DNA of 64,000 nt from Klebsiella phage LPKP23. The notes under the pieces are model-generated. The model had not been told where the DNA came from, ran no database searches, and saw nothing but the letters and a program-made list of their open reading frames with translations. This document shows, piece by piece, positions 30,824-33,082 of the stretch. Location of the stretch: the sequence record PV112478.1. One strand, given 5' to 3'. Position 1 is the stretch's first letter; each line of letters opens with the position of its first letter. The position numbers were made by a program, and so were the translations under genes.

Positions 30824-33082
30824 TTACGCAGCGGTTTTCGCTGAGGCTACAGCATAATTCAGTGCTGCATTCACAGTACGAATAGACAGAGAGACCGTAC
30901 TAGAACTGAACGCGTTCAAGAAACTCACGGTGTTTTGGAAATATGCGCGCAGCGCAGTGATTTCCTGTTTAACGTTTTCACCGGTGCCTTCAACGTTGTT
31001 CGACAGTTTCAGTAAACGATCGAGGTCGGGGAGCAGCGCACTCTCAGTTTTGCTGATATCGTCTGCCAGAGAAGAGTTTTTGATTTTCTTCAGAATCTCA
31101 ATAGCGCTCTCGGCAACGGCGTTGATATCAGCCGCAGAAAGCGCTGGCGCTTCTTTGACTTCACTACTTTCAGTGGCGACACGGAAAGCAGGTTCTTTCG
31201 CCCACTCGTGACCAGTGACGATGACAGTAAACACGTTGCCGCCTAACAGATTAGCGGTGTATTTAAACCCTTCGCCATCGACGTCAAACGGGCCGCGTTT
31301 AAGTACGTTGCTGTATTTCTCGTAAAGAGAGCTCAGGACTTCGCGTGTACCGCCATTACCGCTGTAGTCTTCACCGTTCATGACTTTATCAAGAACGTTC
31401 TGACGAACCGCTTTGTGGATTTCGTTAGACGCGTCAATGACAAACCCTACGGTATCGATCATGCCGGTTGATTTGTTTTTGAACTCATTGAACGCTTTAG
31501 CGAAGTTACCGTCAACTTTCCCGCCGGTAGTTAACTGAGAAAGAAACTCGCCTGAGACAGATCCGTTTGGTGTTTTACCCTGGTCGAGACTTTTCAGCGC
31601 TTCTGCTTTACGAATCAAAATGTCAGTGCGGCTAAAGGCGGAACGGATGAATTCTTTCCCTTTGGCCATTTTATCTTTGATGAACGCGATAATACGTTCG
31701 AACCACACTTTCATGTCTTCTTGAATTGACTCAACCGCTAAGCGAGTCTGGGTACGAGAAGTGAAGTTGTAGTTCTCCAGGGAGACATCAGACTGCAGCG
31801 GGTTACCGTCGCGTTTCATGAAGATGTTCAGAATCATCATGGCTTCAACAGAAACACCCTTACCGTCGAGGGATTTTTCCAGGACGTCAACCACCTGAGG
31901 ATAGGTGTCAAGGGCTTCGGTCAGGATACTTTCTTCATCTTCGGTGCCGGTGGTGAAATCTTCAATCACCAGGTCGCCGTCGTCGGATTCCGGTGACAGA
32001 TCAACGGGTTCTTCCGCAACCGCTTCGACAACACCTTCTGCCGGTGCTTCCGCTGCCGGGGTCTCTGCTTCCGGGGTCTCGGTGACGACTTCTTCGACTA
32101 CCGGGACTTCGCCTTCCACAACAGCAGCAACTTCTTCTGGGGTGTTTTCAGACGGCGCATCAACAACCTGCTCTTCCACAACCTCAGCACTTTCAGCGGA
32201 AACAATTTCGCCATCGTGCGTGTTTTCGCCTTTACCTTCGTCCACCACTTCACTTTCGCACGGCAGAGTTTCTTCACCCTGACCTTCTGCGGCAGGTTTT
32301 TCCTGGTCGACTTCGATATCGGATTCACCGGTGCCTTCGTCTACCGGTTTTTCCTGGACGGGTTTAACTTCTTCGCCTTTACCTTCGTCGACTGCAACCT
32401 GTTCAGACGGGAGATGCTGTTCACCCGCACCGGTACCGCCTTCATTCGGCGGATTAGTGCCGTCAGATTCACACGCGCAATCTTCAGAGGAAACTTCTTC
32501 CACAACTTCTTCGGTATCGCCAACCACTTCGTCACTTGAAGGGACTTCGCCTTCTGGGGTGACGTCAGCAACGTCAACTGGCACTTCTTCGGTTTCGGTC
32601 AGTTCTTCGGTGGCTTCTGGGGTGACATCGACTTCGTCGGTTTCCGCCGGTGCTTCCGCTTCGACTTCTTCTGCTTCCTCGATCACTTCTTCAGCAGTGG
32701 TGTCACCGCCTTCTGCGTTGTCGACTTCTGCAACAACTTCAGCAGCTGCTTCTGGGTCACCTGCGGCGATGGCTTCAACCTGATCAACTGTGGCTTCGCC
32801 TGAGTCAGTTACCGGAACCACCTGCGGGGGTTCGATCGGCTCAATACCGTCTACCGGGACATCAGTCGCTACTGGCTCTTCTACGGTGGTTTCTTCCACA
32901 ACTTCTTCGGCAGGGTCTTCGCTAACAACCGTTTCATCAACGGCGACGTCATCGGATACCGGAATATCTTCAGACGGCTGGGCATCGATAACTGCTTGAT
33001 CGACGACTTCTTCCGTGTTCTCATTCTCAAGCGCTGGGCTTGCTTTACGTGAAAGAACACGTTGAGTGTAAGATAATTTCAT
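30824..33082 (-). CDS. Member 1 of the tandem paralog family, with a ~380-aa extremely acidic (E/V/D/T/A/P) N-terminal extension; putative head internal protein
   Basis: 752 aa. Residues ~20-400 are almost uninterrupted acidic low-complexity sequence (EEVVEETTVEEPVATDVPVDG...). The C-terminal ~350 aa contain MILNIFMKRDG and end ...RTVNAALNYAVASAKTAA, matching the other paralogs. Confidence 0.6.
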   Translation of the reverse strand: MKLSYTQRVLSRKASPALENENTEEVVDQAVIDAQPSEDIPVSDDVAVDETVVSEDPAEEVVEETTVEEPVATDVPVDGIEPIEPPQVVPVTDSGEATVDQVEAIAAGDPEAAAEVVAEVDNAEGGDTTAEEVIEEAEEVEAEAPAETDEVDVTPEATEELTETEEVPVDVADVTPEGEVPSSDEVVGDTEEVVEEVSSEDCACESDGTNPPNEGGTGAGEQHLPSEQVAVDEGKGEEVKPVQEKPVDEGTGESDIEVDQEKPAAEGQGEETLPCESEVVDEGKGENTHDGEIVSAESAEVVEEQVVDAPSENTPEEVAAVVEGEVPVVEEVVTETPEAETPAAEAPAEGVVEAVAEEPVDLSPESDDGDLVIEDFTTGTEDEESILTEALDTYPQVVDVLEKSLDGKGVSVEAMMILNIFMKRDGNPLQSDVSLENYNFTSRTQTRLAVESIQEDMKVWFERIIAFIKDKMAKGKEFIRSAFSRTDILIRKAEALKSLDQGKTPNGSVSGEFLSQLTTGGKVDGNFAKAFNEFKNKSTGMIDTVGFVIDASNEIHKAVRQNVLDKVMNGEDYSGNGGTREVLSSLYEKYSNVLKRGPFDVDGEGFKYTANLLGGNVFTVIVTGHEWAKEPAFRVATESSEVKEAPALSAADINAVAESAIEILKKIKNSSLADDISKTESALLPDLDRLLKLSNNVEGTGENVKQEITALRAYFQNTVSFLNAFSSSTVSLSIRTVNAALNYAVASAKTAA

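Follow-up and report, generated by a model that had tools for sequence, protein, structure and literature searches.

The two most abundant internal 'ejection' proteins of phage SPN3US, gp53 and gp54, are made as precursors from which the prohead protease gp245 trims N-terminal propeptides of 125 amino acids (aa) and 137 aa, respectively, by cutting after A-x-E (PMC5694885, PMC7411985, PMC10052503). The mapped cuts lie at ARE-12, AQE-95 and AQE-125 in gp53 and at AQE-124 and ARE-137 in gp54 (PMC10052503 Table 2), and the mature form of gp53 is 31.5 kDa (PMC10052503). Both propeptides are intact in protease-deficient proheads and largely gone from virions (PMC5694885, PMC7411985, PMC10052503). 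When unprocessed, gp53 and gp54 make an inner T=1 shell in SPN3US proheads that 'may serve as a scaffold' (PMC7552025). Copy numbers exceed 600 per head, and the mature proteins of the family are ejected into the host (PMC5694885). Here we describe a gene of this family in 64,000 nucleotides (nt) of Klebsiella phage LPKP23 (PV112478.1; hereafter the window). Its 752-residue product carries an ultra-acidic run of 394 residues, which we argue is probably a greatly expanded pro-region, cut away as the head matures.

A second point of reference is phiKZ, whose cleavage data are relayed by PMC11297242 and PMC5694885. In PMC11297242 the motif of the phiKZ protease gp175 is given as S/A/G-x-E, and gp93 as cut at SLE-13. 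After cleavage at E13, residues 14-84 of gp93 stay on the inner capsid surface as a fibre-like cement, as do residues 18-137 of gp162, while the helix-rich C-terminal domains are thought to be destined for the inner body (PMC11297242).

The window gene is 99.4% identical to the coding sequence KpLz245_1760 of Klebsiella phage KpLz-2_45, a Siatvirus of the Chimalliviridae (nucleus-forming jumbo phages of about 300 kb). Pfam family PF12699 (phiKZ_IP, 'phiKZ-like phage internal head proteins') covers residues 381-745 of the product (E = 1.1e-24; score 87.9 bits, cut-off 27), and the match to PHROG 2497, 'internal head protein', has E = 6e-32. These were the sole matches in Pfam and PHROGs, and they bear out an earlier first-pass annotation, made from the DNA alone, which had assigned the acidic sequence to the N-terminal half of an inner-body protein. 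Neither Foldseek nor a sequence search gave a significant match in the PDB to any part of the protein. The order of genes is identical to SPN3US gp48-gp54 and phiKZ gp87-gp96, and because this order is shared we take the 752-aa protein to be the positional ortholog of SPN3US gp53 and phiKZ gp92/93. The precursor would be the first, and probably the most abundant, phiKZ_IP-family internal head protein of the phage.

The position of the acidic run relative to the maturation sites of these relatives carries our interpretation. Alignment of the window protein with seven divergent relatives (22-46% identity) gave 28 invariant columns, 26 of which lie within residues 1-451. They include the glutamates of four protease motifs: E19 (A-L-E), E413 (S-V-E), E436 (S-L-E) and E451 (A-V-E). 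In a MAFFT alignment, the experimentally mapped sites AQE-125 of SPN3US gp53 and ARE-137 of gp54 fall exactly on A-V-E451↓S (context LAVE↓SIQEDMKVWFERI; the arrow marks the bond to be cut), and an S-L-E of phiKZ gp93 occupies the column of A-V-E451. A maturation cut is therefore predicted after E451 (codon 31730..31732), and since the mapped sites align there and E451 is invariant, the acidic domain would lie wholly inside a 451-aa pro-region. From this alignment, together with the invariance of E19, E413, E436 and E451, we conclude with a probability of about 0.72 that the acidic stretch is a greatly expanded, disposable pro-region, belonging to an internal head protein of the phiKZ_IP family in a nucleus-forming jumbo phage.

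Both ends of the predicted pro-region are well conserved. The junction at its C-terminal end, which also reads EDEESILTEALDTYPQV...GVSVE↓AMMILNIF, holds three of the invariant protease-motif glutamates (E413, E436 and E451), and all 22 family representatives have an acidic pro-region with a (V/I)(A/S)(L/V/M)E↓(S/G/A) site at the equivalent place. At the N-terminus, T6, L10 and E19 are invariant in eight divergent orthologs, and [ASG]xE occurs at residues 12-25 in all but one of the 22 representatives. Residues 1-19 are thus a candidate capsid-targeting sequence combined with a first protease site. Beyond E451, the remaining 301 residues are neutral (net charge -1, isoelectric point (pI) 6.2), and AlphaFold2 (AF2) predicts them to be helical with a small beta element. 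The prohead protease gene is not encoded in the 64-kb window; the near-identical KpLz-2_45 genome encodes a homolog of the SPN3US prohead protease (E = 1e-20; MN871446, 79152-79721).

The acidic run itself is real, as first described, and slightly longer than the ~380 residues originally placed at 31900..33020 (residues about 21-394). Residues 20-413 contain 91 Glu and 38 Asp (129 acidic residues) with 7 Lys and no Arg, which agrees with the description of a stretch almost without basic residues. The net charge is ~-122 at pH 7, the mass 41 kDa and the computed pI ~2.9 (a Biopython value of 4.05 is a floor artefact; recomputed value 2.9-3.7). No other window protein comes near the 752-aa product in acidity (net -120; the second most acidic has -49). 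The rise in GC content and the strong AT skew at 32001-33000 of the window arise from coding sequence rich in GAA, GAG and GTT, and the plus-strand open reading frames (ORFs) within the acidic region are Ser/Thr-rich mirror-frame artefacts. AF2, run on an eight-sequence alignment and to be read as suggestive rather than as proof, gave no secondary structure for residues 1-93 and 144-384, with a predicted local distance difference test score (pLDDT) of about 30-35 (<50) over this part.

A loose (E/D)(E/V)V/TxE periodicity had also been proposed for the region. The pattern [ED][EV][VT]xE is over-represented (11 observed, 2.9 expected) and acidic residues avoid lag 2 (z = -4.2), but no long-range period was found in the acidic region, and the periodicity is a local preference for EEVV/VVEE-type words only. 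Tandem Repeats Finder reported a single 15-bp x1.9 repeat and no DNA tandem array beyond that. The features of the gene and its surroundings are collected in Table 1.

Table 1. Coordinates of the precursor gene, its predicted parts and neighbouring features in the window, with the basis of each assignment.
Feature	Position	Strand	Basis
Internal head protein precursor gene, 752 aa	30824..33082	-	ORF list; KpLz-2_45 match; PF12699; gene order
Basic N-terminal leader, residues 1-19 (MKLSYTQRVLSRKASPALE), ends A-L-E19	33026..33082	-	Invariant residues in orthologs
Ultra-acidic region, residues 20-413, mostly predicted disordered	31844..33025	-	Composition, charge, AF2
Conserved island, residues 85-142 (PPQVVPVTDSGEATVDQVEAIAAGDPEAAAEVVAEVD at 85-125)	32657..32830	-	Conservation, AF2
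E-D-C-A-C-E motif, residues 200-205	32468..32485	-	18/25 long-form sequences
Four diverged EGxGE repeats, period about 16-17 aa, residues 230-295	32198..32395	-	Regex positions 233, 249, 266, 282
Conserved junction, residues 386-451: LTEALDTYPQV...GVSVE413↓AMMILNIFMKRDG...SLE436...LAVE451↓S	31730..31927	-	17 invariant columns
Predicted mature internal head (ejection) protein, residues 452-752, 32.6 kDa, net about -1	30827..31729	-	Pfam, PHROG, AF2
Exchangeable cassette, codon 459 to about 10 nt past stop	30815..31708	-	Local blastn, breakpoint alignment
Shine-Dalgarno AGGAGA, 8 nt 5' of ATG	33091..33096	-	Direct sequence reading
Terminator-like hairpin, 14-bp stem with 8 GC pairs, T-rich tail, directly 3' of gene	30774..30806	-	Terminator scan
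Upstream gene, phiKZ gp91 vertex-binding protein homolog, locus marker	33108..33665	-	PF25618 E = 9e-55
Paralog 2, 495 aa, PF12699, SPN3US gp54 counterpart	29285..30772	-	
Paralogs 3 and 4, 419 and 410 aa, PF12699	26766..29267	-	

How might such a precursor work? We propose that it would enter the prohead interior, directed there by the short basic leader and the adjoining conserved islands. The mostly disordered, polyanionic chain of ~390 residues would then tether or space the 300-residue helical cargo beneath the shell, acting as a disposable scaffold or space-filler like the layer of unprocessed gp53/gp54 in SPN3US proheads. A prohead protease of the gp175/gp245 type would cut after A/S/G-x-E at E19, E413, E436 and E451, and probably also at some of the ~20 other motif sites that the acidic region contains. 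The neutral mature protein would thereby be released, stay in the head and be ejected with the DNA. The acidic fragments would mostly exit the capsid before or during DNA packaging, and a short N-proximal piece may stay attached beneath the shell of the capsid, as happens with phiKZ gp93. By our own arithmetic, retention at >600 copies per head, with ~-120 charges each, would add about 10% more negative charge to that of a 300-kb genome, which argues for removal. The first-pass annotation had listed a rapidly degraded propeptide as the outcome that would speak against a packaged polyanion. Essentially this outcome is what the aligned cut sites point to, by homology rather than by proteomics of this phage.

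The same annotation had suggested that the polyanion is packaged as a DNA mimic or anti-restriction decoy, or that it serves as a counter-ion under capsid pressure. A chain with a net charge of about -122 over 394 aa, packaged and co-ejected, could in principle titrate host DNA-binding defence proteins or tune internal capsid pressure; mature proteins of the family are ejected into the host in SPN3US (PMC5694885), and T4 IPI sets a precedent as an internal head protein that acts as an anti-restriction factor (PMC9026906). However, the acidic region lies upstream of the conserved, aligned maturation site, and its predicted disorder (pLDDT <50 for residues 1-93 and 144-384) offers no rigid array of carboxylates. 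No homology to a mimic family was found, PF12699 being the sole Pfam/PHROG family. The acidic part is moreover conserved while the mature domain evolves fast and is swapped between phages (see below), the opposite of what is expected for a decoy that faces the host. As a polyanion has the same sign of charge as DNA, it cannot serve as a counter-ion to it. We therefore consider a packaged mimic, decoy or pressure regulator highly improbable.

We compared the length of the pro-region across the family. A search of 1.84 billion representatives returned 23 relatives, among which 15 are ordinary, with 62-91 aa before the junction and a net charge there of -4 to -24, and 7 have 228-494 aa with a net charge of -69 to -112. 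The impression that the window protein is unusual for its family in length and charge was thus well founded. Combining this search with phage genomes and with a second search that used the pro-region gave a set of 25 long forms, from Siatvirus, Maaswegvirus/FBKp24, Centimanus, Moabitevirus/2050HW/Totoro and metagenomic jumbo-phage contigs with the same synteny. In this set the pro-region measures 288-551 aa with a net charge of -73 to -130, and the mature part 298-324 aa. The window copy is among the most acidic long forms and is not the longest. The pro-region search returned PF12699 proteins only, and a scan of IMG/VR returned only FBKp24 and 2050HW, both already found. Because the 25 long forms share an acidic pro-region of this size, we regard it, from these sequences, as a trait of a clade that shows large variation in length. 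Composition also differs by clade, being E/V-rich here, A/D/T-rich in Moabitevirus and D/P-rich in P0004. A comparison of lengths had been expected to reveal expansion and contraction of a repeat-driven array. Length does vary between relatives, but the differences are scattered indels, and we rejected a tandem-repeat-driven array as their explanation. A search of the literature for a description of this long acidic propeptide form found none.

Could the expansion be largely neutral, a tolerated low-complexity insertion whose function is limited to not disturbing assembly? The range of lengths (288-551 aa) and the shifting composition between clades would fit such an origin, and the short-form members manage with 62-91 aa. 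Substitution patterns argue otherwise. Against Klebsiella phage MJ359, the acidic region shows 19 synonymous and 7 non-synonymous differences (ratio of non-synonymous to synonymous substitution rates, dN/dS, 0.11), and against FBKp24 it retains 73% amino-acid identity with a dN/dS of about 0.10. Its dN is 2-3 times that of neighbouring structural genes; even so, these ratios place the acidic region under purifying selection. The mature domain is also less well conserved than the pro-region in each pair that we compared, all 25 long forms keep a strongly acidic pro-region (net -73 to -130), and conserved islands and a CxC motif, described next, interrupt the sequence. A largely neutral expansion is on this evidence very unlikely.

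The islands also show that the region is not the pure low-complexity sequence it was first taken for. They lie at residues 26-32, 99-142, 200-205 and 230-295. The first is a conserved VVDQxVID motif. The second belongs to a longer island, residues 85-142, with helices predicted at 99-106, 110-123 and 130-142 (pLDDT 70-78). This island is kept in P0001-P0005 and related phages, and P90 and G108 are invariant. The third, of the form E-[D/N/G]-C-A-C-E, occurs in 18 of the 25 long forms and is absent from Moabitevirus-type sequences and from P0004; the motif may bind metal or form a cross-link. The fourth comprises the diverged repeats VDEGKGEE, VDEGTGES, AAEGQGEE and VDEGKGEN, which are recognisable in FBKp24 and P0001 too, and no other part of the acidic region bears Lys, Gln or His. 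Directly in front of the CxC motif, P0005 (locus L012 5001-7613) has a non-acidic insert of ~120 aa, in which a Gly-rich hydrophobic segment (GFLGGLVGFLIGGTGW...) is followed by a basic coiled-coil-like stretch, and P0001 has a shorter non-acidic insert, VSNEGLLAKIKELESILNKAGI, at the same place. The window lineage has no such insert.

The motif that opens the helical island, EVDQ[VI]..[DN]P, is also found at the start of the helix-loop-helix of phiKZ gp93 (residues 43-52, AEVDQIENNP), and it bears on another fate for the acidic region. After cleavage, much of it could be kept as a capsid lining, attached on the inside of the major capsid protein lattice. There, 'S-shaped' fibre modules resembling gp93 and strung into a chain would staple neighbouring hexamers by beta-strand augmentation and a helix-loop-helix wedge; the extra length would then supply several modules per chain. 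In phiKZ, gp93 residues 14-84 and gp162 residues 18-137, which lie between protease sites upstream of a helix-rich domain, are resolved on the inner capsid surface, where they bridge capsomers (PMC11297242). The gp93 segment is itself acidic (net -18 in 71 aa, 27% D/E), and the V-rich, strand-like words of the acidic region, its helical island at 99-142 (pLDDT 70-78) with a VDQV..DP opening, and the purifying selection on it would all suit a lining. However, the best local alignment of the acidic region to gp93 14-84 scored z about 2 (p about 0.04, uncorrected) against composition-preserving shuffles, and once composition is allowed for it is not significant. No repeat of a ~70-aa module within the region was detected, and residues 144-384 are predicted to lack order altogether, with indels giving them different lengths in different relatives. 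Placing ~-120 charges per copy beside packaged DNA would also be electrostatically costly. Retention of much of the region as a capsid lining thus seems unlikely.

Several observations weigh against a pro-region that is simply a disposable spacer cut to pieces. The acidic region contains 20 protease motifs, close to the 19.1 expected from its composition, and orthologs do not consistently keep either the density of motifs or the largest fragment size; the D/P-rich P0004 has 6 sites and a 173-aa stretch free of motifs. Dicing into small peptides is therefore not demonstrably selected, and we rejected both an enrichment of protease motifs and a selection for small fragments in this region. PhiKZ retains part of the equivalent region, residues 14-84 of gp93, in its virion (PMC11297242). 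The combination of purifying selection with conserved islands, including the CxC motif, suggests functions more specific than that of a passive spacer. Finally, the literature on FBKp24/phiKp24, Siatvirus, Maaswegvirus and Moabitevirus yielded no virion mass spectrometry, proteomics or structural data bearing on the protein, and the phiKp24 cryo-electron microscopy paper, whose map is at 4.1 Å, is without proteomics or internal-protein data.

A further reading sees the acidic chains as a functional polyelectrolyte brush. The leader and the helical island would anchor hundreds of ~390-residue chains, with ~-120 charges each, beneath the T=27 shell, where they would replace a folded scaffolding protein. 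Electrostatic and entropic pressure from the brush would set or hold the size of the prohead, and would exclude DNA and cytoplasmic proteins until the protease dissolves it. The E-D-C-A-C-E motif could provide a metal- or redox-dependent cross-link within the brush. In a related version, which is less likely, the head would keep a large fragment that is then co-ejected to act as a polyanionic decoy. For the giant phiKZ-like capsids a scaffolding protein has yet to be identified with certainty, and what their long propeptides do is acknowledged to be an open question (PMC5694885, PMC10052503). We consider the brush quite unlikely and offer it as speculation. The long-form clade, in which long pro-regions are borne on cargo of constant size, could in any case serve, beside the short forms, as a natural experiment on whether these regions are a targeting signal, a spacer or scaffold, or a capsid cement.

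The mature domain has a different history from the pro-region that precedes it. An initial megablast covered positions 1-1374 of the gene only. Compared with MJ359, the window DNA is about 98% identical from 40000 down to 31709 and 96-98% identity resumes at 30814, while blastn detected no nucleotide similarity to MJ359 between 31708 and 30815. The segment that differs begins 7 codons past the predicted cut site. Upstream of it, pro-region identity tracks the relatedness of the phages (window-MJ359 98%, FBKp24-Centimanus 99%, window-FBKp24 75%). Mature-domain identity, in contrast, is discordant with relatedness (window-MJ359 30%, FBKp24-Centimanus 33%, MJ359-Centimanus 71%), and the MJ359 domain matches those of Centimanus and P0001 at 60-71% and that of the window at 30%. 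Similar decoupling of the two parts is seen in P0024 vs P0025 and in P0032 vs P0034.

These comparisons indicate that the segment coding for the mature domain has been exchanged as a cassette. Given this decoupled conservation, the cargo domain appears to be a swappable cassette carried on a conserved delivery or assembly module. The start of the cassette 7 codons after the predicted cut suggests that the pro-region may be a portable capsid-delivery module, comparable to the capsid targeting sequence (CTS) of T4. Conservation of the pro-region combined with swapping of the cargo may be of help in phage engineering and in the study of head-protein evolution.

The surroundings of the gene are those of a head-assembly locus. 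The precursor ORF starts with ATG. The terminator-like hairpin 3' of the gene has a counterpart in FBKp24, where a terminator is annotated at the matching position; it falls within the sequence kept across the cassette swap. On the 5' side, the gp91-like neighbour also adjoins the orthologs in the P0004 and P0005 contigs. On the 3' side of the ORF come three more PF12699 genes, in an order common to SPN3US, phiKZ and the P0004 and P0005 contigs. Paralog 2 has a pro-region of ordinary length (about 148 aa, net -11), with a spacer of 60 aa. Paralog 3 (28008..29267, minus strand) is present in KpLz-2_45 and FBKp24 and cleanly missing from MJ359 and Centimanus; phages of one genus can therefore differ in how many internal-head-protein paralogs they carry.

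Other observations concern more distant parts of the window. The major capsid protein gene (14221..16506, minus strand; PF25620, E = 2e-218) encodes an N-terminal acidic stretch with V-A-L-E↓S, consistent with a cleaved propeptide, and is overlapped across nearly its whole length by a 692-aa ORF on the opposite strand (14374..16452, plus). Acidic segments also occur in two plus-strand ORFs without a Pfam match. One, of 932 aa (6256..9054), has a Gly/Asp/Asn/Trp-rich acidic tail, DAGGGWDNDSSGNDWDNNDSGGGDAFGGGDFGSFEDTEEDPF..., with a net charge of -21 in 60 aa. The other, of 574 aa (48667..50391), has an acidic N-terminal patch, …EEETKPEEETEEKEEEEH…, with a net charge of -20 in 60 aa.

The acidic run in this protein is real and extreme. 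It is largely explained by the known biology of jumbo-phage head maturation and does not indicate a new kind of system; two points worth noting are the conserved CxC motif and the exchange of the cassette where the cleavage boundary lies. How close it stands to described systems varies. DNA-mimic anti-restriction proteins such as T7 Ocr and ArdA are compact folded dimers whose carboxylates trace the backbone of B-DNA. The window protein shares with them a phage origin and a high density of Asp and Glu, but its acidic region is predicted to be disordered, is rich in V, P, T and A, lies upstream of a maturation cleavage site and belongs to a head-assembly gene cluster. T4 gp22, gp67 and gp68 and the CTS-bearing internal proteins of T4 are analogous in the way they work. 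Targeting there uses a short sequence at the N-terminus, cleavage after Glu is carried out by a related prohead serine protease, and the core fragments mostly exit the head, making room for DNA (PMC9026906, PMC7411985). There is, however, no sequence homology to them (PF12699 being the sole Pfam/PHROG family here), and the T4 protease motif is L/I-x-E. Scaffold and ejected internal proteins are separate in T4, whereas here a scaffold-like spacer and its cargo would share one precursor.

The phiKZ proteins gp93 and gp162 are true relatives, with the same family and locus and with an acidic N-terminal region split from a helix-rich domain by gp175 sites; the EVDQ..(D/N)P motif is possibly shared as well. 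In gp93, however, ~156 aa precede the aligned site, compared with 451 aa here, homology of the acidic parts is without statistical support, and only in phiKZ have residues 14-84 been seen to stay on the capsid (PMC11297242). In SPN3US gp53/gp54 cleavage was mapped by experiment, and here it is predicted from sequence. The pro-region of the window protein is far longer (451 aa vs 125-137 aa) and more acidic (net ~-119 vs -15 and -26) than those of gp53/gp54, and it contains a helical island, a CxC motif and EGxGE repeats that were not found in them. The Pfam domain, locus and gene order are nonetheless shared, and so is the layout. Each protein begins with a basic leader that has A-x-E at about residue 12-19, continues through an acidic pro-region and then a conserved junction, and ends in a mature part of ~300 aa.

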